Shown one piece after another: positions 17,399 to 64,000 of a DNA stretch of 64,000 bases. The notes beneath the pieces were generated by a model. It worked only from the letters and a program-made list of their open reading frames with translations. It was not told the origin of the DNA and did not search any database. Each line of letters begins with the position of its first letter. Position 1 is the stretch's first letter. The stretch covers positions 2,208,001 to 2,272,000 of the forward strand of contig OY820905.2 in assembly GCA_963555755.3 (NCBI GenBank), in the 5' to 3' direction. The translations under genes were made by a program, and so were the position numbers. Origin of the DNA: Nitrospirales bacterium. GTDB taxonomy: Bacteria > Nitrospirota > Nitrospiria > Nitrospirales > UBA8639.

Positions 17399-18040
17399 AA
17401 CCGTGCGTATAGTTTTCCCATACACGGCTTTCCGATGTTCTTCTTCCAGAGGCATGCGTCTGTCATTAGCCAATAGCCAAATTCAGACTTGGCCTTCCGA
17501 GATAGTTTCCTCTGTAGTGTCCTGATCGTACTTGGGGTTGATAGCGCGATGGCAATCCCCGGATCCTCCACTCGTCGAAAACGCGAACAAAGTAGGGTCC
17601 CTTCCCTCGGGCCGGGTTGTGTTGTCCCAGGCCCTCCAACGGTACTATGAACCCCTCCGACTCCCACGACGGCCCCTGACGATTTCGGTATCCCTTATAC
17701 GTCGGGGTTGCTGGCTCTATCCCAGCACCGTCGCGGGTCTCCCGTCCTGCACGGTGTCTCTTCCACCACATGCCATCCCTGCTACCCCGGAAGATCCTGA
17801 GGGTGGGTGTTCGTTCTACTCCCTCAGACAGCGGCCTTCCCCTTCTGACCACAGGGTCGGCATCTCCAAATAAGTCACGAGGCTACGTCTAGGTTCGCTT
17901 GCGCTACGGCCTGCAGCTTTGCCCATGGGAAACTTCAACCCCTGATTACTCAGACGCTGCTTCCCGGTGCTAGAAAGGTGTACGAACAACTCCTTTCGCG
18001 GGACTTTAACCCGCTAGACACACCGCCGATGACGGCATGC

Positions 18041-28196: not shown

Positions 28197-28658
28197 TATC
28201 TAGACCGGCAACTAGAAGCAGCCACGAAAGGATGGGAAGAGGTTCCCTCTTGGGTGTTCTGTAGTGAGACAGGAGGACTTCTGCACCCTCACAACCTTCG
28301 GGATCGGGTGTTCTATCGTCTTCTGAAGGCCGCAGGATTGCGCCAGGTACGTTTTCACGACTTGCGCCATACCTTCGCTTCCCTGTTGCTTCAGCAAGGC
28401 GAAAGCATGGTCTACGTCAAAGAACAGATGGGCCATTCCTCTATCCAGGTGACCGTGGATCTCTATGGGAAACTCATTCCAGGCGGGAATAAGCAGGCAG
28501 TCGATCGACTCGATACTCCTGTGGATAAATCCGAAAATAACACCGAATCCGCAACCCTACCGCAACCCCTCACCGTTGGCGCAGTGCTGCCCACCACATT
28601 TTCTTTGGAATATTCACGAGTTAGAAGTGAAGGGTTTGGGGTGAGTGACGGGAATTGA
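28197..28658 (+). pseudogene. Tyrosine integrase C-terminal remnant reading into the tRNA att site
   Basis: RFHDLRHTFAS...MGHSSIQVTVDLY; N-terminus missing at the IS5 end. Confidence 0.88.
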
Positions 28659-28714
28659 ACCCGCGACCTCCGGGTCCACAACCCGGCGCTCTAACCAACT
28701 GAGCTACACCCACC
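28637..28714 (-). tRNA. tRNA-His (GTG)
   Basis: GGTGGGTGTAGCTCAGTTGGTTAGAGCGCCGGGTTGTGGACCCGG...GGTTCAATTCCCGTCACTCACCCCA; G-1:C73 pair; encoded CCA. Confidence 0.96.
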
Positions 28715-43887: not shown

Positions 43888-45204
43888 ATGATGATGAAGA
43901 TACAACAACGCTCTTTGAGTCTAATCCGTTGGATTGGGATAGCCCTTGGGATGATCGTCCTTGTTGGAGGTGGATGGTGGGTGAACGAAAAGCTCGTGAC
44001 TCAACTCGGTTTAGCTGTGGCAGAGGTTTCTGATCCTGACATGCAGGACATGAAGGAGATGGGAGGCATGGACATGAAGTCCATGTCAGGGTCCTCTGAT
44101 ATGGCGCCTTCCCAGGTATCGCTGATGGTGTCACCTCTCAAACAACAGTTGATTGGCGTGCAAACAGCGCTGGTGGAGAAACGTCGCCTTTCAACGAAAG
44201 TTCGAGCAGTTGGGAGGATCACGTATAACGAACGGCGCATTGTCCATGTCAATCTTCGGATTTCAGGTTGGATTGAAGACCTTCTGGTTGATTTCACTGG
44301 GCAACCCGTCCAAAAAGGCCAGCCCCTCTTTACACTGTACAGCCCTGAGTTATTGGCCACTCAAGAGGAATATGTCCTGGCTTTGGAGGCGTTAGACAGC
44401 GTCCAGGAGAGCCCGCTCCCGAATATTCGTCAGGAGAGCCAACGGGTGGTTGATGCAGCACACGATCGACTACATCTCTGGACCTTTACGGAGGAACAAA
44501 TTGATCGATTGACACTCACCCGAACGCCGATGAAAGCCGTGACCATTTTTTCCCCGATAAGTGGGTATGTGATCGACAAAACCGCGTTTCAAGGCATGTT
44601 CGTTCAACCTCAGAACACGATGTACACGATAGCCGATCTTTCAACTATTTGGGTTCAGGCTGATGTCTTTGAATATGAACTTCCCTTTATCCAAAAAGGT
44701 CAGGCAGCGACGCTTACCCTGGAGGCTTTCCCAGGGGAAACATTTTCCGGACGTGTAGCCTATATCTACCCGTATCTCAAGAAAGAGACCCGCACCGTGC
44801 AGGTGCGCCTTGAATTCGCTAATCCTCAAGTGCGGCTGAAACCTGACATGTATGGAACGATCCTCATTCAAGTAGATCGAGGTCCTAGTCTGGCCGTTCC
44901 AGACCAAGCTGTGCTTGATTCCGGACTCCGACAAGTCGTGTTTGTCGCCAAAGAGAAAGGGATGTTTGAACCGAGGGAAATCACGCTCGGGCCAAAGGTC
45001 GGTTCCTTTTTCGAGGTAGTCAAGGGGTTGAAAGAAGGCGAACGCATCGTCACGTCGGGCACCTTTTTATTGGATTCGGAAAGCCGACTCATGGCCACGA
45101 GTAACATGATGGGGGCTTTGGGGATGGGCGGAATCAAAATGGAACAGGCTCAGATGGGCAAGATGGACATGGGAAGTATGGATATGAGTGGGATGAATGA
45201 ATGA
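43888..45204 (+). CDS. cusB: RND periplasmic adaptor (CusB-like) with Met-rich termini
   Basis: LYSPELLATQEEY, IADLSTIWV, LKPDMY, FLLDSES. Confidence 0.93.
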   Translation: MMMKIQQRSLSLIRWIGIALGMIVLVGGGWWVNEKLVTQLGLAVAEVSDPDMQDMKEMGGMDMKSMSGSSDMAPSQVSLMVSPLKQQLIGVQTALVEKRRLSTKVRAVGRITYNERRIVHVNLRISGWIEDLLVDFTGQPVQKGQPLFTLYSPELLATQEEYVLALEALDSVQESPLPNIRQESQRVVDAAHDRLHLWTFTEEQIDRLTLTRTPMKAVTIFSPISGYVIDKTAFQGMFVQPQNTMYTIADLSTIWVQADVFEYELPFIQKGQAATLTLEAFPGETFSGRVAYIYPYLKKETRTVQVRLEFANPQVRLKPDMYGTILIQVDRGPSLAVPDQAVLDSGLRQVVFVAKEKGMFEPREITLGPKVGSFFEVVKGLKEGERIVTSGTFLLDSESRLMATSNMMGALGMGGIKMEQAQMGKMDMGSMDMSGMNE

Positions 45205-45312
45205 GAGGGTCTCCCGAGTACTCAATGGCTACTACCATTGTGGCTTGTCGACGGTACCAAGACTCTACCTCACCTAACCTCTCCTTACAAAGGAGAGGGA
45301 TCTGAGGCAGGT

Positions 45313-45458
45313 AGGGAATGTTCAAAAAAGCATGCCCTGAGTCTTTCCGAAGGGTCTATCCAGCAAGGCCGCAGCCCTTTTGACGCGCGGAGCGTACTCT
45401 CGTACGTGAGCACGGCAAAAGGGCGAGAACGCCGCTGGCGGCTTTTTTCAACATTCCC
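45313..45458. mobile_element. MITE family C between cusB and cusA
   Basis: TIRs; near-identical to 35000-35147 in reverse. Confidence 0.85.
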
Positions 45459-45482
45459 GAATGGAAGAGGATCAAGACTCGA

Positions 45483-48400
45483 ATGATTGAACGAACCATT
45501 GCGTGGAGCGCCCGCAACGGATTTTTGGTGGGGGTGCTGGTTCTCTTTCTCATGGGCTGGGGAATCTGGGTGATTGCTCACACTTCGCTTGATGCGTTGC
45601 CAGATTTGTCGGACGTCCAGGTGATTGTGTTCACGGAATGGCCCGGGCGCAGTCCAGATTTGGTGGAGGATCAAATCACCTATCCCATTGTGACATCCAT
45701 GTTGGGAGCCCCGCGTATCAAGTATGTGCGGGGACAATCTTTCCTCGGCCTCTCCTTTGTCTACATCGTGTTTCAAGATGGGACCGACATGTACTGGGCG
45801 AGAAGCCGTGTTGTTGAGTATATGCAAGGTGTCGCGGACAAACTGCCCGAAGGCGTCTCGCCTACGCTTGGGCCCGATGCCACGGGAGTGGGCTGGGTCT
45901 TTCAGTATGCCTTGGTGAGTGAAAATGGCAAACAGAGTTTAGCTGACCTTCGATCGTTTCAGGATTGGTATCTGCGCTATTGGCTGCAAAGCGTGCCCGG
46001 TGTCTCAGAGGTGGCCTCTATTGGTGGGTTCGTGAAGCAATATCAGGTTCAGGTAGATCCTGTGAAACTGCAAGCGTCCCGTATTGGCCTTTCCGAGGTT
46101 ATCCGAGCGATTCGCCGCAGCAATAATGAAGTGGGTGGACGGGTGATTGAAGCCAGTGAACGGGAATACATGGTACGAGGCCGGGGTTATATCCGTTCCC
46201 TGGATGACCTCCGAAGCATACCAGTAGGAACGGATCAGCATGGGACGCCAATTATCATCCAGGATATTGCCCACGTCACCATCGGTCCGGATATGCGACG
46301 AGGCGTCGCGGAGCTGGATGGCATGGGAGAAGCCGTTGGAGGCATCGTGATTATGCGCTACGGCGAAAATGCCCTTAATGTCATCGATCGGGTGAAAAAG
46401 AAATTAAAAGAAATTGAACCATCTATTCCCGAAGGAATTCGCGTGGTCACCGTATATGATCGGTCTGACCTGATCCTTCGAGCCGTTGCCACATTAAAGG
46501 ACAAACTCATTGAAATCAGTGTGGTCGTCAGCCTTGTCTGTGTGGTCTTTCTCTTTCACATTCGGTCAGCCCTGGTTCCCATTCTTCTGCTACCGGTGGC
46601 CGTGATGCTCTCGTTCATTGCGATGTATTACCTTGGGATCAGTTCGAATGTGATGTCGCTTTCGGGCATCGCGATCGCGATTGGGGCCATGGTCGATGCT
46701 GTCATCGTCATGGTGGAAAATGCTCACCGACGATTAGAAGAGTGGGACCAACAGGGTCGAATAGGGTCCCGAAATGACGTGATTATTCGGGCAGCACAAG
46801 AGGTCGGCAAACCACTCTTTTTTTCCTTGCTGATTATCACGGTGTCTTTTCTACCCATTTTCACTCTGGAAGCGCAGGAAGGGCGGCTGTTTAAGCCACT
46901 CGCCTATACAAAGACGTTTGCCATGTTCTTTGCTGCGCTGGCCTCTATCCTGGTGGCTCCGCTGTTCATGCAGTGGTTCATTCGTGGTCGGATCACACCA
47001 GAAAGCCGAAATCCTTTGAACCGATTTCTTATTTGGATCTATACCCCCCTGTTAAAAATTGCGTTGCGTGTCAGATGGCTTGTGGTGGGATTAGCCATTG
47101 GGGGGATCATCTTGGTGTTGCCCATCTACGAAAAGCTAGGGTCCGAATTCATGCCCCCCTTGAACGAAGGCACGATTTTGTATATGCCCACATCTCTTCC
47201 CGGCCTGTCTGTTCAGAAAGCCAGCTACATTCTCCAGACCCAGGATCGATTGTTAAAGGAGTTTCCCGAGGTGGACCGTGTGTTTGGGAAAATGGGCCGA
47301 GCACGGACAGCCACGGACCCTGCCCCGCTGAACATGGCCGAGACGATTATTACGCTCAAGCCTCAGGAAGCCTGGCGGCCAGGGATGACATGGGACAAGT
47401 TGATTGCCGAAATGGATCAACGGGTCAAAATGCCTGGCATGCCGAACATTTGGTGGATGCCAATTCAAACCAGAACCGAAATGCTCGCCACGGGCATCCG
47501 AAGTAGCCTGGGAATTAAAATCTTAGGGCCTCGTTTAGAGGAATTGGAACGATTGGGTTTGCAAATTGAAGGCCTGCTTCAATCTCTTGAGGGAACACGA
47601 AGTGCGTATGCCGAGCGGGTCACCGGAGGATACTATTTGGACATCGATGTGAATCGCGTGGCCGCAGCCCGATACGGATTGACGGTGGGAGATGTTCAAG
47701 ATGTTATCGAATCCGCCATTGGAGGAAAAAACATTACATGGACTGTGGAAGGCCGTGAACGCTATCCCATAAATGTTCGGTACCCTCGCGAACTACGCCA
47801 GGATGTCGATGCCCTTAAACGCGTCCTTGTGATGACACCACAAGGAGAGCAAATCCCACTCGCACAACTTTCCAGCATCACGAAGACCACCGGTCCCCCA
47901 TCCATTCGAGATGAGAACGGCTCCCTTGCCAGTATTGTGTTTGTTGATGTGGCTGGCCAAGATCTGGGGACCTATGTTCAGAATGCCAAGGCGTTGGTTC
48001 AAGAACATGTGAAGCTCCCACCAGGATATTCGTTACAATGGGCAGGCCAATACGAATATCTTGAACGAGCACAGAAACAACTTCAGATTGTGATTCCCTT
48101 AACGCTCTTTATCATTTTTGTGTTGCTGTACCTTAACTTCCGCTCCGTCCCTCGCTGCCTGCTGGTTCTTCTCTCGGTTCCGTTTTCCTTGGTCGGAGCG
48201 ATTTGGTATCTGAATTTTCTGGGATACCATCTGAGCGTGGCCGTGTGGGTAGGACTTATTGCATTGGCAGGTGTGGCAGCTGAAACCGGAGTCATTATGA
48301 TCATATTCCTGGATGAAGCCTGTGCCAAGCGGCAAAAGGAAAACCGACTTCAGACATTGAGCGATCTTCGTGATGCGGTCGTCGAAGGGGCAGTGCTTCG

Positions 48401-48605
48401 AGTGCGGCCAAAAATTATGACGGCCGCTGCGATTTTCCTTGGATTACTGCCCATCATGTGGAGTCACGGGACTGGGGCAGATGTGATGAAGCGTATTGCT
48501 GCACCAATGATTGGGGGTATGGTTACGGCCGTGGTGCTCACTCTTCTGGTCATCCCGGGACTGTACATCATCTGGCGGCAATGGGATCTCAGGCTGAGAA
48601 AATAG
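45483..48605 (+). CDS. cusA: CusA/CzcA-family Cu/Ag efflux RND permease
   Basis: LDALPDLSDVQV, GPDATGVGWV, EFMPPLNEG, MPIQTRTEMLATG. Confidence 0.96.
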   Translation: MIERTIAWSARNGFLVGVLVLFLMGWGIWVIAHTSLDALPDLSDVQVIVFTEWPGRSPDLVEDQITYPIVTSMLGAPRIKYVRGQSFLGLSFVYIVFQDGTDMYWARSRVVEYMQGVADKLPEGVSPTLGPDATGVGWVFQYALVSENGKQSLADLRSFQDWYLRYWLQSVPGVSEVASIGGFVKQYQVQVDPVKLQASRIGLSEVIRAIRRSNNEVGGRVIEASEREYMVRGRGYIRSLDDLRSIPVGTDQHGTPIIIQDIAHVTIGPDMRRGVAELDGMGEAVGGIVIMRYGENALNVIDRVKKKLKEIEPSIPEGIRVVTVYDRSDLILRAVATLKDKLIEISVVVSLVCVVFLFHIRSALVPILLLPVAVMLSFIAMYYLGISSNVMSLSGIAIAIGAMVDAVIVMVENAHRRLEEWDQQGRIGSRNDVIIRAAQEVGKPLFFSLLIITVSFLPIFTLEAQEGRLFKPLAYTKTFAMFFAALASILVAPLFMQWFIRGRITPESRNPLNRFLIWIYTPLLKIALRVRWLVVGLAIGGIILVLPIYEKLGSEFMPPLNEGTILYMPTSLPGLSVQKASYILQTQDRLLKEFPEVDRVFGKMGRARTATDPAPLNMAETIITLKPQEAWRPGMTWDKLIAEMDQRVKMPGMPNIWWMPIQTRTEMLATGIRSSLGIKILGPRLEELERLGLQIEGLLQSLEGTRSAYAERVTGGYYLDIDVNRVAAARYGLTVGDVQDVIESAIGGKNITWTVEGRERYPINVRYPRELRQDVDALKRVLVMTPQGEQIPLAQLSSITKTTGPPSIRDENGSLASIVFVDVAGQDLGTYVQNAKALVQEHVKLPPGYSLQWAGQYEYLERAQKQLQIVIPLTLFIIFVLLYLNFRSVPRCLLVLLSVPFSLVGAIWYLNFLGYHLSVAVWVGLIALAGVAAETGVIMIIFLDEACAKRQKENRLQTLSDLRDAVVEGAVLRVRPKIMTAAAIFLGLLPIMWSHGTGADVMKRIAAPMIGGMVTAVVLTLLVIPGLYIIWRQWDLRLRK

Positions 48606-48630
48606 ACACCGAGCTAAAAGAAACCCTACA

Positions 48631-48770
48631 GGGCACCTCTAAAAACCAGGCATTTTGGTGAGGGCAAGGAAGCCACGCGCGGAAAACCGGAGTGTATGGG
48701 CGAATACATGAGGATTTGAGCACGCGGCTGACGCCGCCATCACGGAAAAGGACGGTTTGTAGAGGTGCCC
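48631..48770. mobile_element. MITE family D
   Basis: TIRs; TACA/TACA target duplication. Confidence 0.92.
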
Positions 48771-48789
48771 TACATGTTTAAATCACGGG

Positions 48790-49000
48790 CCCGTTGAAAG
48801 AGCATGCCCTGGGTATGGTCGAAAGGTCCGCAGCGGCGTTCTGGACCCATGGTCGTACTCACGTACTCCGAGTACACTCCGCGCGCCAAGCCTACTCCGC
48901 CGAAGTGGCTACGAAGGCCGGGCGGGCCTGCGGCCTTTCCTTCGACCGACTCAGGACAGGACGGACCTCCCGCCTCCGCGAGGGCATGCTTTGTGAACAG
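48790..49000. repeat. Divergent family C element carrying small REP-like inserts
   Basis: Core CAGCGGCGTTCT...CTCACGTAC...GCGGCCTT plus CCTTCGACCGACTCAGGACAGG. Confidence 0.55.
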
Positions 49001-49177
49001 CCCTCAAATGGATGGACATTGGGTGTGCCTTTCATCATTCCTTCTGGCATTCCCGGATCACTTCCCGTTTATAACCTTACGTTTACTTGCGAATCCACTT
49101 TCCACTCTTCTGAAATACCACGCTGGTCCTTCAGGTGGTGCTCTCCAGAAATCCTGTGACTATCTTCAACCATGGTC

Positions 49178-49209
49178 TTGACTCCGTACTATGGTACGGG
49201 GCATATGCT
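49178..49209 (+). promoter_or_regulatory. MerR-type promoter/operator
   Basis: TTGACT-CCGTAC-tatg-GTACGG-...TATGCT; dyad inside an elongated 19-20 bp spacer, like the mer PT promoter. Confidence 0.85.
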
Positions 49210-49215
49210 GTCTCC

Positions 49216-49629
49216 ATGAGAATAGGTCAAGTTGCCAAACGTGTGGGAGTTGGTATCGAAACCATTCGCTTTTATGAGCGAAAGGGATTGATCGTTCAAC
49301 CACCCCGGCCCACTGGAAGATACCGGGAGTATCACAAAGAAGCTGTGGCAAGAATTCGTTTCATAAAATGCGCCAAGGAACTGGGGTTCTCATTAACGGA
49401 AATATCAGAATTCCTCTCTTTGCAGGCCAATCCCAGGGCTACGTGTGCGGATGTTAAACAGCGCGCCGAAGCCAAAATTTCGACTATTCAGGAACGAGTC
49501 AAAGGTCTACAGACAATGAAACACGCACTTGGAAAGTTGGTTAAACCCTGTAGCGGACGCGGTCCCCTTACTGATTGTCCCATTATTGATTGCTTTGAAA
49601 CTCAGAAAGAAAAGGAGGAGTCCCTATGA
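49216..49629 (+). CDS. merR: Heavy-metal-responsive MerR-family regulator (Hg-type three-Cys pattern)
   Basis: ETIRFYERKGL, LGFSLTEI, TCADV...C.GRG...CPII. Confidence 0.85.
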   Translation: MRIGQVAKRVGVGIETIRFYERKGLIVQPPRPTGRYREYHKEAVARIRFIKCAKELGFSLTEISEFLSLQANPRATCADVKQRAEAKISTIQERVKGLQTMKHALGKLVKPCSGRGPLTDCPIIDCFETQKEKEESL

Positions 49630-49895
49630 GAACCATACGTCGTATCGAAATTTTCAGTGCTGGGTGTCAGGTCTGTGAAGACACGATCACCCTTGTCAAA
49701 CGCCTTGCGTGCTCCTCATGCGAGGTCATGGTCCTGGACATGAAAGATCAGACAGTATCCACCCGCGCAAGGGAGCTTGGCATTCATACGGTTCCTGCGG
49801 TGGTGATTGACAGTCAATTGGCACTGTGCTGTGTTGGCACTGGTCCCAGTGAGAGCGCCTTAAGGGCCGCCGGTATCGGCACTCCTTTGCCGTAA
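49626..49895 (+). CDS. Small thioredoxin/glutaredoxin-like protein
   Basis: IEIFSAGCQVC, VPAVVID, CC pair; ATGA coupling to merR. Confidence 0.85.
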   Translation: MRTIRRIEIFSAGCQVCEDTITLVKRLACSSCEVMVLDMKDQTVSTRARELGIHTVPAVVIDSQLALCCVGTGPSESALRAAGIGTPLP

Positions 49896-55796: not shown

Positions 55797-56810
55797 ATAT
55801 GCCTTCCCATTTAACTAAGGTTGCTTCAGTTTATTGAATCCCAAGGGTTTTGAGCTGCTGGTCAGGATTTTCAACAAACTCTGGAAGGTACTCATTGGAG
55901 TCTCACGGCGGTTATAGCGAAAGACAAACTCATCAAGATAGTGTTGCAGGTATTTTGAATCCACTCCATGGTGAATCCCGTTCAGCCAGGTCTGCAGATT
56001 GCCGAACGCTCTATGGATGTGTGGAGCGTGCTTCCCAGCACTTGCTGGGTCACCCTGGGTCCGTCTCAGGTGTTCGTATCCTGCCAAGGCTTTTGCCGAG
56101 TATCCCTTCCAACCATCGGACTTGATCTTACTGCCCTCAGCGACATGGCTATTGAGGAATGCTTTGATCTCGTTCTCTCCAGCGTCTTGAAGAATCGCTA
56201 ATCGTAAACGCCCTGCTTTCTCTCGAAAGTGATCCCCTTGTGTGTACGTGACAATTTCTACGGCTCCGGCTATTAACGTCTTGGTTTTCGCTTTCGCGAC
56301 GCCACGGCCCGTTTTGCCTTTTACCGGTCCACCGATATGGGTTTCATCGGCTTCAACTGTTCCTGCGAGCCGTTCACGGTTCTGTCGTACCATTCCTCGT
56401 CGCAATCTGTGGAGCAAATACCAGGCGCTATCCACCTTCTTGATACTGAGTTGACGCTGCAATTGCACAGCACTGATGCCAGGTGTGTGCGTGGAGACGA
56501 AATAGGCAGCCCAAAACCAAAGCCGTAGCGGCAAGTGCGATCTATGCATCACTGTGCCGCTTAGCGGTGATGTCTGTCTATGACACGACGAACACTCAAA
56601 CCGGAAATATTTTTTGAGCCACCAACCACCGCGATGACCGCAAGCTGGACACATAAACCCGTCTGGCCACCGAATCGCCCGCAAGTACTCGAAGCACGCT
56701 TCTTCGGTGTGGAACCTAACAGAAAAATCCAAGATATCAGCAGCATACCCTGTGTCCATAGTCCAGCAGACTAGTCTAGGGACTAACCTTAGTCAAATGG
56801 GAAGGCATAT
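55797..56810 (-). mobile_element. IS1595 family insertion sequence
   Basis: TIR ATATGCCTTCCCATTT.ACTAAGGT at both ends. Confidence 0.88.
55815..56759 (-). CDS. IS1595 family transposase
   Basis: RWPDGFMCPAC zinc ribbon, VEADET, SDGWKGY, YLDEFVFRYNRR. Confidence 0.95.
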   Translation of the reverse strand: MDTGYAADILDFSVRFHTEEACFEYLRAIRWPDGFMCPACGHRGGWWLKKYFRFECSSCHRQTSPLSGTVMHRSHLPLRLWFWAAYFVSTHTPGISAVQLQRQLSIKKVDSAWYLLHRLRRGMVRQNRERLAGTVEADETHIGGPVKGKTGRGVAKAKTKTLIAGAVEIVTYTQGDHFREKAGRLRLAILQDAGENEIKAFLNSHVAEGSKIKSDGWKGYSAKALAGYEHLRRTQGDPASAGKHAPHIHRAFGNLQTWLNGIHHGVDSKYLQHYLDEFVFRYNRRETPMSTFQSLLKILTSSSKPLGFNKLKQP

Positions 56811-56866: not shown

Positions 56867-57904
56867 TTAAGAGGTTCGGTCAATCATGTAATGGAGACTT
56901 TTCTGGATGAAGGCTTTGTCGTCGCTCTCCGGGGCATCTTGATAAGCTTCAACAAAAACTTGTTCGGCTGCATCACGGAGTTCACGCGCACCAGACCGCG
57001 CGTACTCAATGCTTCCATATGTGTTCAGCAACTCCATCACCCTGTCAATGTCCTCAGCATACTTGCCATTGCGCGACTTAGATAGAAAGCCCTTCAGTTT
57101 CTGGGTCTCCTGCGGTGATCCTTTCCCAAACAAGTGGGAAAGCATGAGCGTCCGCTTTCCCTCGTAGAGATCTCCGGCAATTTCTTTACCGTATTTCTGC
57201 CGACTCCCTGTAAGATTCAAAATGTCGTCCTGAATCTGAAATGCTGAGCCAAGGAGATTTCCAAATGAGTTGAATCGGTCAAGGTCGGTGTCTTCAGGAC
57301 GTGCAATGAGTGCACCGACTCGGCAGGGATTGATAAAACTATACCAGGCAGTTTTCTTTAAGGTCATGAGGAGATAGTCCTCATCTGAAATATCGCACCG
57401 ATTGTCCCGGTTCCACCCTAGCTCAATAGCTTGTCCCTCGTGCGTCACCCTGCTCATGGTGTGGAACTCCTCCTCTAATTGACGTACTAGGTTGGGACTC
57501 AGGGTAGAGCCATTCTTTCTAAAGATACTCCAGCCTAACGCTTGCATCGCATCACCGACATTTACAGCGATTGGAATCCCGTATTGGGCATGCATGGTCG
57601 GATGGCCCCGTCGAAACTCACTCCCGTCTTCGATGTCGTCATGAACGAGAAACGCGTTATGGAGCATTTCAATCGCCGCTGCCGAGACAAGGGCATCCTC
57701 GATGCGACCTCCAAAGGCGCCACAAGTGGCCAGACAGAGAGCCGGGCGTAGCCCCTTTCCCGAACGTTCCAGAAACTCTCGTATCGGGGTGTACAAATAA
57801 CGACGCGGCTCTTTGTCGGGGATTGATCTTTGCAAGACGTCCATTATCTGGCGACGATAGTCATTCAACCGTTCAAGGAATGCGTTGTAGTCTTGAGAAT
57901 CCAT
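56867..57904 (-). CDS. Polyprenyl (GGPP/FPP-type) diphosphate synthase
   Basis: GKGLRP, LVHDDIED..RRG, GQAIEL, KTAWY, FQIQDD, DLYEGK. Confidence 0.95.
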   Translation of the reverse strand: MDSQDYNAFLERLNDYRRQIMDVLQRSIPDKEPRRYLYTPIREFLERSGKGLRPALCLATCGAFGGRIEDALVSAAAIEMLHNAFLVHDDIEDGSEFRRGHPTMHAQYGIPIAVNVGDAMQALGWSIFRKNGSTLSPNLVRQLEEEFHTMSRVTHEGQAIELGWNRDNRCDISDEDYLLMTLKKTAWYSFINPCRVGALIARPEDTDLDRFNSFGNLLGSAFQIQDDILNLTGSRQKYGKEIAGDLYEGKRTLMLSHLFGKGSPQETQKLKGFLSKSRNGKYAEDIDRVMELLNTYGSIEYARSGARELRDAAEQVFVEAYQDAPESDDKAFIQKSLHYMIDRTS

Positions 57905-57929
57905 GGATCGATAAACCTATTGGGGGTTC

Positions 57930-59999
57930 CTAACGTTGTTGCACAATTCGAAGCCGGGCAGGCTGGCGTGTTTGACCTTTATCCTCCGAACCCTTCATTG
58001 TCTGGGCGAGATCTCCAGGGCTTCCGCCTACCTCTTTTTGACCACCTTCTGGTGGAACGATCTGCCTTACCTCCTCCAACATCGATTGCACGGGTTTTGG
58101 TATGTCCAAGAGGTTTTCCGCCTGTGGTATCGGACTTTCGCTAAACGGCTGGGTGAGGTTGCTCACCGCATCATAAGCCTCTGAAAAACTTTTCAACGAA
58201 CCACCGTCAATGTTGGAGAACTTACTGGCCTTTTGAAACACATCGAGTACCGGTTTCGCGATACTCATCAGGGCTAATGGGTCTTCCCAGGGTAGATGCT
58301 TTTCCCAACGGGCCCGGTCATATTCACGCCACGGTTGCAGAATCTCGGGCTCATGGAGCTCCCACACTCGGCAGGGGGTCGCGTCGGACCCAGACCGGTC
58401 GAGGATCCCATTGACGGCCCTTCGGGCGGCCTCATTCGCCGACTCCATCGTAGCCAGGTCAGTATGGGTTCGGACATAGTCGGAGGCAAGGAACAGGTTC
58501 GGAATGGCGGTGACGGCGTCGGGCCTCAGGCGCCACGCGTCTATCAGATTCACGAGAAGTGGCTCGACGTTCTCGTGTCGCCGCCTTTCTTCGGGATCCC
58601 GACGGATATCCGGATCCAAAAACCAGTAGTCCAAATCCTCATCCCGCAGGACCTCCCTTCCATGCATATCGTTCAAGCTGCGCTTAAGTTGTTCCCAGGT
58701 CTCGTTTGCGATTTCCTCACGGGTGCAGTCGCTGGCCCTTTTACCATAGAGCACCCCCTCGGTTTCCCAGTCGGAGATATCGACAGAGAGAATGTCCCTG
58801 GTATCACCGTCACTGAATTTGGAAAGATCGAAATCGGGCCAGAACTGAGCTTGCGACACTGAAGTGAGAGCCCAAGGGGTGTCGATGAAGATGACGTGGC
58901 CATGAGTAATCGGCACCAGGCGAGTGACGTAAAACATGATGCCGTTCATCCACGCGACGTGTGTCGCTAGTTCCGGCAAGTGGCTCAGCCGTGGATCGGC
59001 TTCGCGAAGGCTCAAGTTGACCAAGGGGGCCATCCGTTCTACGGGGAGGGCAGACACGTAATAATCGCCTTGTACCTCGGTTGTCATACCATCCTTTTCC
59101 ACCGTGACACTTCGCACCTCTCCGCCGGAGCAGTTGAACGACTGTACCACACAATTCATGTGGTATTTCACGCCCCGACTTTCTAAATAGTCCAACCACG
59201 GTCGAATCCAGACAACATTAGTTGGTCCGTTGAGCAAACGGTCGCTCGTCGCGACGGTCGGATCAATAATATCAAACACCAGTTGAAGGAAAATGTTCCC
59301 AATCGTCCGTGTGTTGGCACGCTGAGCCTGGGAGGCGACAAGGGAACGAGTAATTCCATGACCGAAGAATTTTTGATAGTCCTTGGATTGTTTGGCGGCT
59401 TCGATGAATTCCCACCACCCGATTTGTTCATATTCGTCCAGCCGGCGTTCTTGGGAGGAAGTCGCGATCTGCCAGACCCGCGACGCAAAGAGGTGGACCT
59501 CATGAAGGGGCACCCCGATATCCCCGGATAATAGTTTGAAGACCGCATCAAAAACGGATTTGAACCCTTGGGGGGTCCTCGGAAATCGGGCGGGAAGAAC
59601 GATTTCCTTGCCGCCCTCTCTTGCCAACAACATCTGAGTAGTGTTGACCATGTTGTCAGAGACCTTCCCGTTCCCGTATGGGATACGATCCATGGTATCG
59701 ACAACGTGTTTGTAGAAACCGGGAAAGAAGCGAAAGCCGTGCTCCCCCGGTAACCAAGGACGCTTTTCGTGCGGCGCCAACTCATGCCCTTTCATCCGAC
59801 GCCACTTCTCGATGGCTGGACCGTGAATGGCTTGGCTTCCTCGGTCATCCAATGATTCAAAAACGGGAATGCTGCGCGCCTTGCCTCCGGGGATGTATTG
59901 CTTTTCGTAGACTTCGACATCAAATCCACGCTCAGCCAGCTCGTGAGCAGCGCTCATTCCGCCGATACCCCCACCAAGTATAATTACCTTTTTGGGCAT
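57930..59999 (-). CDS. FAD-dependent oxidoreductase, carotenoid desaturase/HpnE-like, with long C-terminal extension
   Basis: ILGGGIGGMSAAHEL, GGKARS, EHGFRFFPGFY, NLFLASDYV..ATMESA. Confidence 0.88.
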   Translation of the reverse strand: MPKKVIILGGGIGGMSAAHELAERGFDVEVYEKQYIPGGKARSIPVFESLDDRGSQAIHGPAIEKWRRMKGHELAPHEKRPWLPGEHGFRFFPGFYKHVVDTMDRIPYGNGKVSDNMVNTTQMLLAREGGKEIVLPARFPRTPQGFKSVFDAVFKLLSGDIGVPLHEVHLFASRVWQIATSSQERRLDEYEQIGWWEFIEAAKQSKDYQKFFGHGITRSLVASQAQRANTRTIGNIFLQLVFDIIDPTVATSDRLLNGPTNVVWIRPWLDYLESRGVKYHMNCVVQSFNCSGGEVRSVTVEKDGMTTEVQGDYYVSALPVERMAPLVNLSLREADPRLSHLPELATHVAWMNGIMFYVTRLVPITHGHVIFIDTPWALTSVSQAQFWPDFDLSKFSDGDTRDILSVDISDWETEGVLYGKRASDCTREEIANETWEQLKRSLNDMHGREVLRDEDLDYWFLDPDIRRDPEERRRHENVEPLLVNLIDAWRLRPDAVTAIPNLFLASDYVRTHTDLATMESANEAARRAVNGILDRSGSDATPCRVWELHEPEILQPWREYDRARWEKHLPWEDPLALMSIAKPVLDVFQKASKFSNIDGGSLKSFSEAYDAVSNLTQPFSESPIPQAENLLDIPKPVQSMLEEVRQIVPPEGGQKEVGGSPGDLAQTMKGSEDKGQTRQPARLRIVQQR

Positions 60000-60364
60000 T
60001 TCTTTGCTCCTTGCTGAGTTTCCGTTGTCTGCTCTTGGCCGAGCCTCCCGGCTTGGTCTCTTCAGGGGTTTAGACTTAAGCCACGGACACTCACTTGATT
60101 TCCTTTCACTAAACTAAGACTTCACCTCCTGCCGGTATTCGCCAATGAAAGTTACCCTCCTTGTCGGATTCCTCTTTCTTGGCAATGCCAAGACTTTAGA
60201 AAAATAAAAATCCGTGTCTTCGCCTTTGTGTGCATTGAAACGGTTTTATCATCAGGCACTCTTCTCTATCGAGAATTACTGATCAGGTCACTAAATTGTT
60301 CGTGTCCACGTGTCAATATAAGAAACTGGCTTCCACGGAACTTCTGATCTTTCCACTTTTTTGC

Positions 60365-60441
60365 GTCATTCCCGCCTGTCGTAAGCGGGAATCCCTCTTG
60401 TTCCGTCCGGATGGATACCCGCCTCAAACCGCGGGTATGAC
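60365..60441. repeat. REP-like palindrome pair
   Basis: GTCATTCCCGC..GCGGGAATCC and GGATACCCGC..GCGGGTATGAC in inverted orientation. Confidence 0.7.
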
Positions 60442-60571
60442 GGCTAATGCCGGAGTTGGCTTGACCTCGTGCATAACACTATTGCGTGGCCATGCCACCA
60501 CCCGAGAGGCGCAGAAAAAATATGTCGGTCATGCCGCTTGATCGAATCGTACGCACTATTTACCGGTTTCC

Positions 60572-61168
60572 TCAGTAATTCCTTGGATCCTTAAGGTAGA
60601 GTCTTGTACTAGACTGCCATTCTTCCCCCTCATCAATAATGATTTCGATTGGGAATTCCGGATCGAAGGGGTGCTCGCCCTCACTTGGCATGTCAAATTT
60701 TAGCGGGTCTGGGCTTATATCATCATGCCCCAATGCATCTATTTTTTCTTTTTTTTGTGGTTCATCGGTTTTTTTATCGCCCCCAATATCACGGTAAAGG
60801 CCATCCATGAATCTTAGCGTCACCTTTATTTTATTATCCTTATCCATGTCTCCGCCTTCGTTCTTGATTTGTATGTGAATCTGCCACTTAGGTATATCTA
60901 TCCATTTTCCGTTTTCACGCGTTTTGTCCTTTCCAGAAAGGTATCCCCAAGAAGGTATGGGGACCAATTTAGGAGGCTTTGGGGTGGTATCTGAGAAAGC
61001 ATCTTTAAGAGCCTCAACGAGTTTATTTTGGTCTTCGCTCATTTTGCCACTCCTTTTCTTGGTGGTTGTCTTTTTACGAGGTGGTTTCTTTGTGCTGCTT
61101 GTTTTCTTAGTGATTGTCTTTTTACGAGACGATTTCTTTTTGACAGGTTTTTTCTTCATAATCGTCAA
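60572..61168 (-). CDS. Hypothetical protein with highly basic Lys-rich N-terminal tail
   Basis: KKKPVKKKSSRKKTITKK...; RBS; starts 25 bp after the encapsulin stop. Confidence 0.75.
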   Translation of the reverse strand: MTIMKKKPVKKKSSRKKTITKKTSSTKKPPRKKTTTKKRSGKMSEDQNKLVEALKDAFSDTTPKPPKLVPIPSWGYLSGKDKTRENGKWIDIPKWQIHIQIKNEGGDMDKDNKIKVTLRFMDGLYRDIGGDKKTDEPQKKEKIDALGHDDISPDPLKFDMPSEGEHPFDPEFPIEIIIDEGEEWQSSTRLYLKDPRNY

Positions 61169-61192
61169 TACACCCCCCTCTGTTTTCTAGAG

Positions 61193-62095
61193 TTAGGATG
61201 ACATAAGCCAAATAGCTTCCGGTTGCTTGATGCGGAGGGTTAAGCGCTGGGACACGCGGTAGATTTGACGAGTCTCCTCCGTGGCCTGGAGAAACTTAAC
61301 TGAGATATCGTTGGCTAATACAAGGTCAACATTTTCTCCGGCAAGCGATACCAGAACTCCTTCCATATTGGTTAGTGTGCTGGACCTTAGTAGGGGACCA
61401 TTCAATATGGGTTTGATGCGGTCAACAGGCATAACAAGTGAGCTAGTAGGTGTATGAGCCAAATCAAAGAGGTCTGGTCCTAGTACGAGGGCGAATGGAG
61501 ATAAATGCCCTTCTCTTTCGAGGTTTGTGATCATATTCGAGACCCGCCTCACTAACCAGTTTCCGGTGAGCCCAGCCACAGTGCCGGGAATGCTTGTAAA
61601 GTGTCGTGGGGTATTATCTAATCGAGCCGCTTGAGTGAGCCCATTCCATTGTTCTCCGCCCGTAACGTTAAAAACTGGAGGCATCGGAGCAAATGTACGG
61701 GCGCGAATAACGGTTCTCTGCCCTTGAAAAACCAGGTTGTCCTGGATCCGAGCAAGGATCAACGCCGCACGTCGAAACATGTTGAGAGCGCCGGAAAGGT
61801 CTGGATCTTTGGCCTGCGCGGTAGTGAGCGGAACATTCACTGAGACGGTTGTGAGCGCTCGAGTCGTTACGGTGTTAACAGCTAGGCGGCTGGTCGCGAT
61901 ACCAACAGCTCGGGGAAGAGGCTGATTATTAACAAGTCTGTTTATCTGCACTGATTCCGTTTCAGGAGGCAAAGGCCCATGGATTGGCAAAAACGTTGCG
62001 GCGACGCGGACTTTGCGTACTTCATCACGAACTGTCTGCTGCACGAGGTTCCATTGGTCATCCGTCCATTGATTTGGGTAATTTTCCTGTTCCAT
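61193..62095 (-). CDS. Encapsulin nanocompartment shell protein (Family 1/Linocin M18-like, HK97 fold)
   Basis: W..VQQTV..E....VAATFLPIHGP, AA..LARIQDNLVFQG, GHLSPFALVLG, GVLVSL....DLV..D, LRIKQPEAI; 300 aa. Confidence 0.85.
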   Translation of the reverse strand: MEQENYPNQWTDDQWNLVQQTVRDEVRKVRVAATFLPIHGPLPPETESVQINRLVNNQPLPRAVGIATSRLAVNTVTTRALTTVSVNVPLTTAQAKDPDLSGALNMFRRAALILARIQDNLVFQGQRTVIRARTFAPMPPVFNVTGGEQWNGLTQAARLDNTPRHFTSIPGTVAGLTGNWLVRRVSNMITNLEREGHLSPFALVLGPDLFDLAHTPTSSLVMPVDRIKPILNGPLLRSSTLTNMEGVLVSLAGENVDLVLANDISVKFLQATEETRQIYRVSQRLTLRIKQPEAIWLMSS

Positions 62096-62223
62096 AGCTT
62101 CTTCCCCTCTCTTTATTGATTCACAACTATAAATAATAAGATGGTTCTGGGTTCCTTATTAAAGGTCTTCAAGATATCTGAACTCGTATCAATCGTTTGG
62201 TATCGACATCTGCCCCTCGAATC

Positions 62224-63099
62224 CTAAAACAATCCATACAGGTCGTATTCATAAACAGGCTCTTTCATCACGACCCGACCGATTCCGATGCATTGTAGTC
62301 GGTTGACCCATAAGTACTTGGGGTGAGCGGTGATCATTCGTGGGGTTGTCCTTGTGGGTGGCGTCGGTGGCCACTTTTTCTTCAGAAAGTTTTCGTATCC
62401 GTTCTCACCCAATTCGAAGTAACCCGGGTAGTGGATAAAGATCATTGCCCCATCTCCGGTCTCCAGGGTGGCACGCACATCCATGAGCCCAACCCCGTCC
62501 CGCCGAATGGTCATCCAGTCACCGCCTTCGTGATTTATCTTTCCATTGAGCTTTGTTCCGGTAACCTCACCACTGCTTATGTACCAATTGACCTTAATGC
62601 CCTCCGGAGTCTCTCCGATGATCTCTGGGTCACCGCCGCCAAGATGAATCGTAAAATGGCAAAGGTATTCGAGGCTGAACGGCAAACGTCCTTCAAGCAG
62701 ATTTGGTTGAGATGCCGCGTCCAGGATAGGGGTAGGCGCGGCGGCCCGTGGGACTTCAAATTGACGGTTCAGACCCGTCACAGCACATGGGTCCGGAACT
62801 CGGCGCCCGCTATTTTCGCCGATGACGGTATACTCGACCTTCGACCCAGGAAGGAGCCTCGGAAAGGATACTTTGAAGTACTGTCGCCCGGCACCCTGTT
62901 CAGTTCGCAACAGGGTTGCGCGGACGGTGCGCTCGAAACCTCCATCGACACGATACAGTACACTTACCGTATTGCTTGGATTCGCAGGAGAGACACCTGC
63001 TATTACACTGAGGTTATCGGCGGAATCCACAACCCCATCGGGCGCGGGGGTGTCCTCTGTGCCATACCATAGTGTGAGCCCCTCGTGGGTGTAACGCAT
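62224..63099 (-). CDS. DUF3237-domain protein with N-terminal Ig-like domain
   Basis: IGETPEG, GGDWMTIRRDG..MDVRATLETGDGAMIF, YLWVNR. Confidence 0.8.
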   Translation of the reverse strand: MRYTHEGLTLWYGTEDTPAPDGVVDSADNLSVIAGVSPANPSNTVSVLYRVDGGFERTVRATLLRTEQGAGRQYFKVSFPRLLPGSKVEYTVIGENSGRRVPDPCAVTGLNRQFEVPRAAAPTPILDAASQPNLLEGRLPFSLEYLCHFTIHLGGGDPEIIGETPEGIKVNWYISSGEVTGTKLNGKINHEGGDWMTIRRDGVGLMDVRATLETGDGAMIFIHYPGYFELGENGYENFLKKKWPPTPPTRTTPRMITAHPKYLWVNRLQCIGIGRVVMKEPVYEYDLYGLF

Positions 63100-63188
63100 C
63101 GCCCTTTCCCCTCTCGGCTAAGGTCCGTTGACCCGCAAGACCCGCAGGCCCTCATTGCTTGATCACCCTGCCCTTTGGTTTTTGTGTA

Positions 63189-64000
63189 TCATGGCGATTC
63201 TCTCAACTCCTCGATCAGTGCGAGCGCATCAACAAGGTCAACCATTTTCTTTCCTTTTTCTTCTCTAACTTCTTGTTTAACTTCTTTTTTTAAGGAGTGG
63301 TAAAGCTTCTGAGCTTCTTGTTTAACTTCTTTTTTTAAGGAGTTGTAAAGCTTCTCGAGGATCTGGAGCGCCTCTTGCTGTTTCCTCTGCAGTTTCGACA
63401 GCCGGACTAAACCTACTGCCGCTCGGATCCCCAGCATGAGAGCTTTCTGATTACTTGCGGTTGACAACGCCCTTTTGAAATAGTCTTCGGCTTTGGTAAA
63501 ATCGGGAGCTGCATTCTCTGTTCGAGCCTCAGCTTCGGCACGTTGTTTTAAAATCTCTGCCTTGAGGCGATAGAGCTCAGGTTCCATGAAATGCTCGTTT
63601 CGGTCGGGGTCGGTGGCCTCGCGGATTCCTTCGTCCAGTGCATCGAGTGCGTCTTGGGTTCGACCCGCCATCCACAGAACCTCTCCACGCATTGTCATCA
63701 TGTCAGGCAGGCAAATCTTAGTACCGGTGGGTCGAAACTTTTCAAGCCCCCTTTCGATCTCGTCAATCCCTTCCTCGATTCGGCCCTTCTTGGCTATTGC
63801 CCAACCGTGGTAGATCAGGGCGATCGTATCCCAAAGTTGAAAAACCTCCTTTTCGGCAAGCTCCAGCACTTTGGCTGATGCATTCTCTACCCACTCAAAG
63901 TTACGGGCGGAATGGTAGGCAAAGCAGCCGATACCATATGCGAAGGCAATACTGGGCGGATGTCCGAGCTCTTCAGCGAGGGCTACAGCCTTTTCGATCT
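63189..64000 (-). CDS. C-terminal TPR region of a large STAND ATPase/adenylate cyclase-type signalling protein (runs off the window)
   Basis: ALAEELGHP, HGWA, EPELYRLKAEIL, AEDYFKRAL..A..QKA...IRAA; 15-aa tandem duplication near the end. Confidence 0.8.
   Translation of the reverse strand, partial: IEKAVALAEELGHPPSIAFAYGIGCFAYHSARNFEWVENASAKVLELAEKEVFQLWDTIALIYHGWAIAKKGRIEEGIDEIERGLEKFRPTGTKICLPDMMTMRGEVLWMAGRTQDALDALDEGIREATDPDRNEHFMEPELYRLKAEILKQRAEAEARTENAAPDFTKAEDYFKRALSTASNQKALMLGIRAAVGLVRLSKLQRKQQEALQILEKLYNSLKKEVKQEAQKLYHSLKKEVKQEVREEKGKKMVDLVDALALIEELRESP

Follow-up and report, generated by a model that had tools for sequence, protein, structure and literature searches.

What does an encapsulin shell gene do in a row of isoprenoid genes? 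The question is raised by a 64,000-nucleotide stretch of a Nitrospirales genome (GenBank assembly GCA_963555755.3, contig OY820905.2, positions 2,208,001 to 2,272,000; hereafter the window), in which a shell gene lies in line with genes for a cyclase–STAND–TPR protein, an Ig–DUF3237 protein, a Lys-rich protein, a flavin adenine dinucleotide (FAD) flavoenzyme and a trans-prenyl diphosphate synthase. A sequence-only reading of the window had proposed six same-strand genes of these families in a set order, and the list of open reading frames (ORFs), Pfam and NCBIfam confirmed order and families, with all six on the minus strand at the expected positions. That reading had left the tie between the shell and the two enzymes in doubt over a gap of about 570 bp carrying a repetitive extragenic palindromic (REP) element. 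We found that the tie holds well beyond this genome: the operon is conserved and co-inherited, and five of its genes co-occur across eight phyla. From sequence and gene context, we hold with moderate confidence that a Family 1 shell encloses the prenyl synthase/flavoenzyme pair, which would make an isoprenoid under the control of the adjacent STAND-cyclase protein.

Conservation and co-inheritance of the operon

We surveyed 160 loci of shell homologues by tblastn, taking the best 80 of 101 GTDB matches and the best 80 of 288 metagenome matches; the clade numbers at least 237 proteins at E ≤ 1e-10, and this figure and the 101 GTDB and 288 metagenome stretches are lower bounds on its size. The flavoenzyme was found in 130 loci, the DUF3237 fusion in 125, the prenyl synthase in 99 and the cyclase–STAND gene in 98, with the missing genes mostly on short contigs. 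In every locus with at least 4.5 kb downstream (80/80), both the flavoenzyme and the synthase were present, which bears out the co-occurrence that a neighbourhood survey had been suggested to check. Genome loci with 5 kb on each side held both enzymes and the cyclase–STAND gene in 55/55 cases and the DUF3237 gene in 49/55; all four were present in 10/10 metagenome loci with the same room. By record names, the loci belong to Nitrospirota, Pseudomonadota, Actinomycetota, Cyanobacteriota, Acidobacteriota, Gemmatimonadota, Myxococcota and Armatimonadota. One further locus, recorded as Chitinophaga pinensis (L043), was not counted as a phylum because it is probably misbinned, its gene order and neighbours matching those of cyanobacterial loci L033 and L060. 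The five genes are annotated consecutively on a Ruegeria plasmid, and the operon is complete in culturable Ruegeria sp. AD91A, Acaryochloris marina MBIC11017 and strains of Variovorax and Bradyrhizobium.

In a reciprocal test that was not conditioned on the shell, the flavoenzyme was searched in samples of 201, 151 and 151 genomes. All flavoenzymes above 620 bits, plus one split match in G372, lay within 2 kb of a shell gene; they came from seven genomes (G301, G336 and G372; G302 and G606; G305 and G760), three of which were seeds. None of the genomes with only lower-scoring sister flavoenzymes (19 + 19) had a shell of this clade, and in the third sample the top two synthase matches were the shell-linked copies. 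The operon is rare, with 1/301 genomes of the host phylum carrying it and 3/201, 2/151 and 2/151 in the other samples. Pairwise distances of shell, flavoenzyme and synthase correlated across 74 sequences (rho 0.77-0.89), a value that is descriptive only because related sequences are not independent; it is what would be expected of a unit moving together. Taken together, these results make the linkage of the shell to isoprenoid enzymes near certain, and the doubt raised over the gap is removed by the 160 loci and the reciprocal genome searches.

The gap itself is real. It spans 572 bp from the shell side to the flavoenzyme gene and contains a REP-like palindrome at about 60364..60445 (blastn). 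This palindrome has 11 further blastn matches, and GTCATTCCCGC is present 25 times on contig C1; it is an ordinary genome-wide repeat and not operon specific. The shell-to-flavoenzyme distance in relatives has a median of 69 bp and is at most 250 bp in 82/129, showing that the long gap is local to the Nitrospirales locus. The assembly of the operon is sound, since a single 9852-bp contig covers synthase through cyclase in each of two sequencing runs. An Rfam scan gave no match inside the cluster, and a promoter and terminator scan of it did not outperform shuffles. One metatranscriptome yielded short contigs at depth 2-4 on the flavoenzyme, spacer, shell and cyclase genes, for which DNA carry-over is possible, and a second run yielded none.

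Between the gap and the shell lies the Lys-rich ORF (60572..61168, minus strand), which matched nothing in Pfam, NCBIfam or PHROG. It had been taken as part of the cluster; with tblastn matches in 0/160 relatives' loci, it is an accessory gene outside the operon core. Small genes follow the shell in other Nitrospirales-like loci, with CARDB in three that were scanned. The Lys-rich ORF shares their gene slot and an FDPxxxF motif seen in a MAFFT alignment alone, weak signs by which it is probably a diverged relative of these small genes.

The shell, the enzymes and the sensor cyclase

The shell gene (61193..62095, minus strand) matched Linocin_M18 (PF04454, E 1.6e-20) at 73.9 bits against a cut-off of 24.3. 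Its score on the NF041155 equivalog, 90.8 bits, is below the cut-off of 100; despite this shortfall, the Ruegeria homologue is named a family 1 shell by NCBI. In the profile comparison that had been proposed, Family 2 shell models gave no match and the Family 1 model alone matched at E ≤ 0.1. An AF2 model of the shell (predicted local distance difference test, pLDDT, 92.5) has the HK97 fold, and its best Foldseek matches are 9fy6, 8vjo and 6nj8 (E about 1e-21, about 20% identity). The best viral capsid was weaker than these cellular encapsulins (E 6e-15), and the closest solved folds are T=3 and T=4 encapsulins. The shell is the sole PF04454 gene of the genome and had no match in PHROG, phage records or viral contigs, all three of which were searched. 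On profile and fold comparisons, then, it is a divergent Family 1 encapsulin, and the view that it is not a phage capsid is supported, much as the sequence-only reading had it.

A FastTree phylogeny of 57 shells, midpoint rooted, built without phage capsids and sampling one third of the genome loci, recovered the shell clade as monophyletic (support 0.88) on a long branch; L196 was left out for its low score. The sister of the clade is the shell of a Nitrosospira plasmid (support 0.92), and myxobacterial shells come next. This Nitrosospira shell (L227, NZ_AP024516.1, 8977-9900) is 25% identical to the shell here. It sits between genes annotated as SpvB/TcaC and as having a neuraminidase-like domain, a Tc-toxin-like setting, and the locus is possibly another unassigned encapsulin operon type.

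The prenyl synthase (56867..57904, minus strand; polyprenyl_synt PF00348, E 1e-63) found its best profile match in 1wmw, the geranylgeranyl diphosphate (GGPP) synthase of Thermus thermophilus (E 1e-74), and retains both aspartate-rich motifs. Therefore, a C20 product is likely, and the enzyme probably makes a short prenyl diphosphate, GGPP. Its second motif, DDxxN, was considered as the mark of a terpene cyclase and rejected, as the Thermus GGPP synthase shares DDVLN.

The flavoenzyme (57930..59999, minus strand; Pfam amino-oxidase/Rossmann) has the fold of phytoene desaturase (PDS) in residues 1 to about 580, and residues 582-689 are mostly below pLDDT 50. Its best structural match is rice PDS, 5mog (Z 32.5, with the next at 25.1; root mean square deviation 2.7 over 443 residues), with which Foldseek agrees, placing oleate hydratases next. 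Identity to PDS is 15-17%. The HpnE model scored 84 bits against a cut-off of 283, and the score was far under the PDS cut-off too; close homologues are nonetheless auto-named "hydroxysqualene dehydroxylase" by NCBI. With the genome's two squalene/phytoene synthase copies as queries, 0/160 loci matched, so the substrate is probably not phytoene made by the cluster. The sister flavoenzyme family comprises at least 7945 proteins at E ≤ 1e-50, likewise auto-named hydroxysqualene dehydroxylase. In a reading by eye of eight sisters, the N-terminus was twin-arginine-like in most, and the C-terminal tail described below was absent from all. In Pseudonocardiaceae (L171-L186), sister flavoenzymes adjoin TetR-like or MpaB-like genes (by eye).

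The Ig–DUF3237 gene (62224..63099, minus strand) encodes an N-terminal Ig-like domain and a DUF3237 beta-barrel (PF11578, residues 142-288, E 2e-28) that matches PDB 4pux (E 2e-13) and 3c5o. Atlas look-alikes of the N-terminal domain are unnamed, and an alpha-amylase-N cluster at 0.89 is a lead only. Among DUF3237 relatives, PhnH cyclises by alkene hydroalkoxylation (PMC11969235) and PhcF/G are decarboxylases (PMC9942872). The Ig–DUF3237 protein is a candidate cofactor-free cyclase or lyase. Optional neighbours include ADC-like proteins or lyases (28 loci), FadL-type channels (3 loci), DUF3237–P450 fusions beside the operon (L040, L046 and L155) and a type 1 isopentenyl diphosphate isomerase (Idi), which here lies upstream of the cyclase gene, outside the window on the same minus strand (G000:C1:2276139-2276756; TIGR02150, 148 bits against a cut-off of 106). 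Second DUF3237 proteins fused to P450-like or globin domains adjoin the operon in L040, L046, L155 and L044. The optional neighbours suggest lipid or isoprenoid chemistry, and the whole has the look of a small-molecule pathway whose tailoring varies.

Next to variation in its neighbours, the operon varies in how its enzymes are joined. The flavoenzyme and synthase form a single ORF in 69 loci, mostly of about 986 aa, and separate ORFs in 28, of which 19 were judged true splits; the other nine (L021, L029, L038, L049, L062, L066, L072, L076 and L081) were excluded as probably frameshifted or fragmented. Split and fused forms are distinct clades (16 split, support 0.99; 58 fused, support 1.0), and the Nitrospirales locus belongs to the split one. 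Split flavoenzymes have a disordered linker that ends in a C-terminal basic-hydrophobic motif like RLRIV. A pattern for this tail, set post hoc after the motif was noticed, matched 18/19 split tails, 83/120 best homologues, 7/585 background ORF ends and 0/69 fused linkers. A gene for an Ig-like protein of 259 aa, here upstream of the cyclase gene and outside the window on the same minus strand (G000:C1:2275323-2276102), accompanies 15/19 split loci, the other four being cut by contig ends. It occurs in 0/69 fused loci, although 48 of these leave at least 1.2 kb of room on each side. The hidden Markov model (HMM) used to find it was built from the protein of this locus and 19 homologues from these loci, none of them fused, and it also matched in seven loci that had supplied no seed, one match being a gene on the opposite strand in Rhodobacteraceae. 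The protein has an Ig-like C-terminal domain by eye and a weak fn3-like Atlas lead (0.79). The simplest reading is that tail and candidate adaptor stand in for covalent fusion of the enzymes.

At the other end of the operon, the window holds only the C-terminal TPR part of the cyclase–STAND–TPR gene (63189..64000, to the window edge, minus strand; Pfam TPR). The whole ORF of 1208 aa (G000:C1:2271189-2274815, minus strand) has class III cyclase, AAA_16 (STAND) and TPR domains, and just upstream of it in the same locus (L001) is a duplicate of its N-terminus (G000:C1:2274889-2275224; 112 residues, 67% identical). In the aligned sequences, cyclase residues Asp121, Asp165 and Arg246 are present in 74/74 and Asn242 in 72/74, and the STAND P-loop keeps its Walker A GxxGxGK and Walker B Asp in 74/74. 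We take these four cyclase residues, and the position at which a Lys would specify adenine, to have their usual roles. That base-specifying position is mostly Gln (50/74) instead of the usual Lys, which makes it uncertain which nucleotide the cyclase makes. Genes for cyclic nucleotide monophosphate (cNMP)-binding proteins, CRP-like or cNMP-kinase, occur in 15/80 genome loci against two in the whole 4.6-Mb genome, a comparison limited by an HMM seeded from these loci and by a baseline of one genome. These neighbours are suggestive of a cNMP receptor for the operon.

Proposed enclosure of the enzymes and its rivals

In the reading that we prefer, the TPR–STAND protein would sense a cue and its cyclase would make a cyclic nucleotide, to be read by a CRP-like regulator or a cNMP-gated kinase. 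The synthase would produce a short prenyl diphosphate, probably GGPP, and the PDS-fold flavoenzyme would desaturate, isomerise or hydrate this compound or a derivative of it. The product would then be cyclised or trimmed, either by the DUF3237 barrel or, at some loci, by an ADC-like or P450 partner. The enzymes would be loaded non-canonically, with the RLRIV tail of the split clade likely docking as a beta-strand on the Ig-like adaptor in place of covalent fusion, and the shell would confine a hydrophobic or reactive intermediate. Terpene synthesis within other encapsulin shells is a precedent (PMC12746231). Fusions in relatives also bear on enclosure. In one metagenome-assembled genome (MAG), the shell carries an N-terminal ADC-like domain (L070, 895-3003; E 0.004), which supports enclosure because the N-terminus of the shell is the end internalised in known fusions (PMC8346489). 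At the other terminus, the P0085 shell is fused to a TIG domain and the L122 shell has a similar extension. Shells 602-2000 aa long were looked for without success, a weak piece of evidence, and apparent DUF3237–shell fusions were rejected as ORF extensions out of frame.

Several observations weigh against this reading, in which enclosure is deduced from gene context and sequence. A targeting peptide of the LxIGSL type was found in none of the 8 cluster proteins; the motif had one match among all core homologues and one among 1151 other ORFs. In the Klebsiella encapsulin, the peptide pocket is formed by Arg34, Asp38, Asp229 and Ile230, with Arg crucial (PMC10960027). In our alignment, to which the Klebsiella numbering was mapped by inference, the Arg position is Ala in 55/69 clade shells and Arg in 26/27 other shells, and the Asp38 position is Pro in 66/69; the Asp229 and Ile230 positions are retained (D/E 69/69, I 55/69). 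With classical peptide and pocket Arg absent, any cargo loading would be non-canonical. The RLRIV tail was rejected as a universal loading peptide, being missing from 69/69 fused linkers, and so cannot be a general loading signal. In addition, split and fused forms represent one evolutionary event, so the match of tail and adaptor counts as a single observation. No cNMP receptor was found nearby in 65/80 genome loci with the HMM seeded from these loci. Plant PDS requires a membrane quinone, a need that would be awkward inside a shell. Finally, six Polyangiales loci (L213-L218, from G785, G765, G752, G692, G657 and G674) carry a sister module around a prenyl synthase 45-48% identical. Its other members vary between loci: a flavoenzyme of 720-770 aa from a different clade, a large ADC-like protein, a cyclase–STAND–TPR gene and a cNMP-kinase, to which L216 adds genes of the mevalonate pathway. 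No shell match was found in 6/6 of the loci, and similar chemistry may thus not need a shell, which may be an add-on.

Given these caveats, the Family 1 shell enclosing the enzyme pair remains our preferred reading. A fuller version of it, which we offer only tentatively, is a new class of encapsulin organelle: the shell would have dropped the classical pocket and would load a prenyl-synthase/desaturase/cyclase line by a new route, through beta-strand tail and Ig-like adaptor or through fusion. It would make a terpenoid at the signal of a STAND cyclic nucleotide, perhaps as a chemical response in immunity or stress. The lost pocket arginine, the shell-less Polyangiales module and a fused enzyme with no obvious targeting tail would also fit a shell that serves the pathway with the enzymes outside, whether by storing, carrying or displaying a hydrophobic product or by acting as an outer-face scaffold through Ig-like proteins; the gene after the shell is often a small CARDB or TIG-like one, and the P0085 shell itself carries TIG at its C-terminus. 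We consider this arrangement unlikely, in that the shells retain the Asp-Ile pair corresponding to the second half of the known pocket, one enzyme-like domain is fused to the shell N-terminus (L070) and enclosed enzymes define known encapsulins (PMC12746231).

We give a similarly low probability to the operon being an inducible immune or conflict module, in which TPR–STAND would detect an invader, the cyclic nucleotide would trigger a defensive isoprenoid and the shell would be container or decoy. STAND–TPR proteins do sense phage proteins, including the major capsid protein (10.64898/2026.01.04.697583), and such a module would suit the very patchy distribution, the IS1595-family transposase that borders the cluster downstream (window 55815-56759) and the Tc-like genes around the nearest outside shell. 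However, only 1/129 selected flanking proteins looked defence specific, other PADLOC matches there appearing to be shared generic domains, and PADLOC recognised no system in the core genes, which gave partial cyclase, NTPase and Rossmann matches and no more. PycC models matched the cyclase domain only, with no Pycsar-type effector in the operon, and the proteins are 40-55% conserved across phyla instead of diversifying. That the shell is a passenger or stranded phage capsid in isoprenoid company by chance is highly improbable, and the neighbourhood survey has largely refuted it: the local REP gap, the score below the NF041155 cut-off and an HK97 fold common to phage capsids would allow it, against 80/80 linkage, reciprocal linkage, correlated distances and a shell with no phage, PHROG or viral-contig match.

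Read depth on the IS1595 transposase is about 75-90x that on the operon in two sequencing runs, indicating that it is highly repeated in those samples. Elsewhere in the window, Rfam identified group II intron domains (15432-18007, minus strand) and a tRNA (28640-28713, minus strand), and positions 43888-49895, read by eye, presumably encode a heavy-metal efflux pair like CusB/CusA and then a MerR-like regulator.

Comparison with known systems

The sequence-only reading had suggested that this system might be undescribed. For the operon this stands, in that no text describing it was found in the searchable literature, most subscription journals being outside that coverage; the shells of the clade, by contrast, are already catalogued. 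A 2021 catalogue lists as Family 1 "Minor", with no cargo, shells of Ruegeria (D1823_20395, H1) and Nitrospiraceae (DD706_23625, P0008) and one of Bradyrhizobium (MOS001) with DUF3237 and PF00348 neighbours (PMC8346489). Its rows for Acaryochloris (AM1_0834), Roseiarcus and B. jicamae match our loci by organism only. Section 7 of that paper describes no such operon type, and its Fig. S1C, on selected Minor operons, may draw the gene order. Some of the 90 unassigned "Minor" systems can now be given a concrete operon, with candidate cargo. If our reading is correct, compartmentalised isoprenoid chemistry would have arisen here independently, using another way of loading cargo and probably yielding a new natural product, and the poorly understood cyclase–STAND–TPR proteins would gain an output that can be tested.

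Like the encapsulins of Myxococcus xanthus (EncA, T=3) and Quasibacillus thermotolerans (T=4), its best sequence and structure matches, the shell is a PF04454 protein of about 300 aa with an HK97 fold and no insertion domain. It differs from classical Family 1 shells in its separate long-branch clade at about 20% identity, its lack of an LxIGSL-type peptide, its apparent pocket Arg-to-Ala exchange and its link to isoprenoid enzymes and cyclase–STAND instead of an adjacent DyP, ferritin-like or hemerythrin gene. The absence of classical cargo had been noted from the sequence and was upheld: the genome (99.4% complete) yielded no DyP C-terminal domain, and no cluster gene matched a ferritin-like or hemerythrin family, for which a genome-wide search was not made.

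The cyclase–STAND–TPR protein resembles the TOMM kinase/cyclase fusion (TIGR03903) in architecture and in adjoining a biosynthetic cluster. Unlike it, the protein has no kinase domain and scores 543 bits against a cut-off of 706, and the cluster is one of isoprenoid enzymes and a shell. We would also liken it, as an assumption, to SWACOS-type STAND proteins. The flavoenzyme shares the PDS fold with phytoene desaturase and HpnE enzymes (Z 32.5 for rice PDS) and differs from both in being fused to or paired with a prenyl synthase and in scoring below both cut-offs.

The 2021 catalogue (PMC8346489) assigns isoprenoid cargo to Family 2; for Family 1 it gives cargo classes of iron, peroxide and nitrogen-redox proteins. 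A parallel in theme is offered by the terpene encapsulins of Family 2B, whose cargo is 2-methylisoborneol (2-MIB) synthase, geosmin synthase or polyprenyl transferase: both systems appear to combine a shell, an isoprenoid enzyme and cyclic nucleotides. The shell here is of another family and lacks the cNMP-binding insertion, and the operon has no terpene cyclase like those of Family 2B. On NF041169, a model of Family 2 polyprenyl-transferase cargo, the synthase reaches 189 bits where the cut-off is 450, and it does not have a long disordered N-terminal domain. In place of the Family 2B arrangement, the cyclic-nucleotide element of this operon is a cyclase gene.

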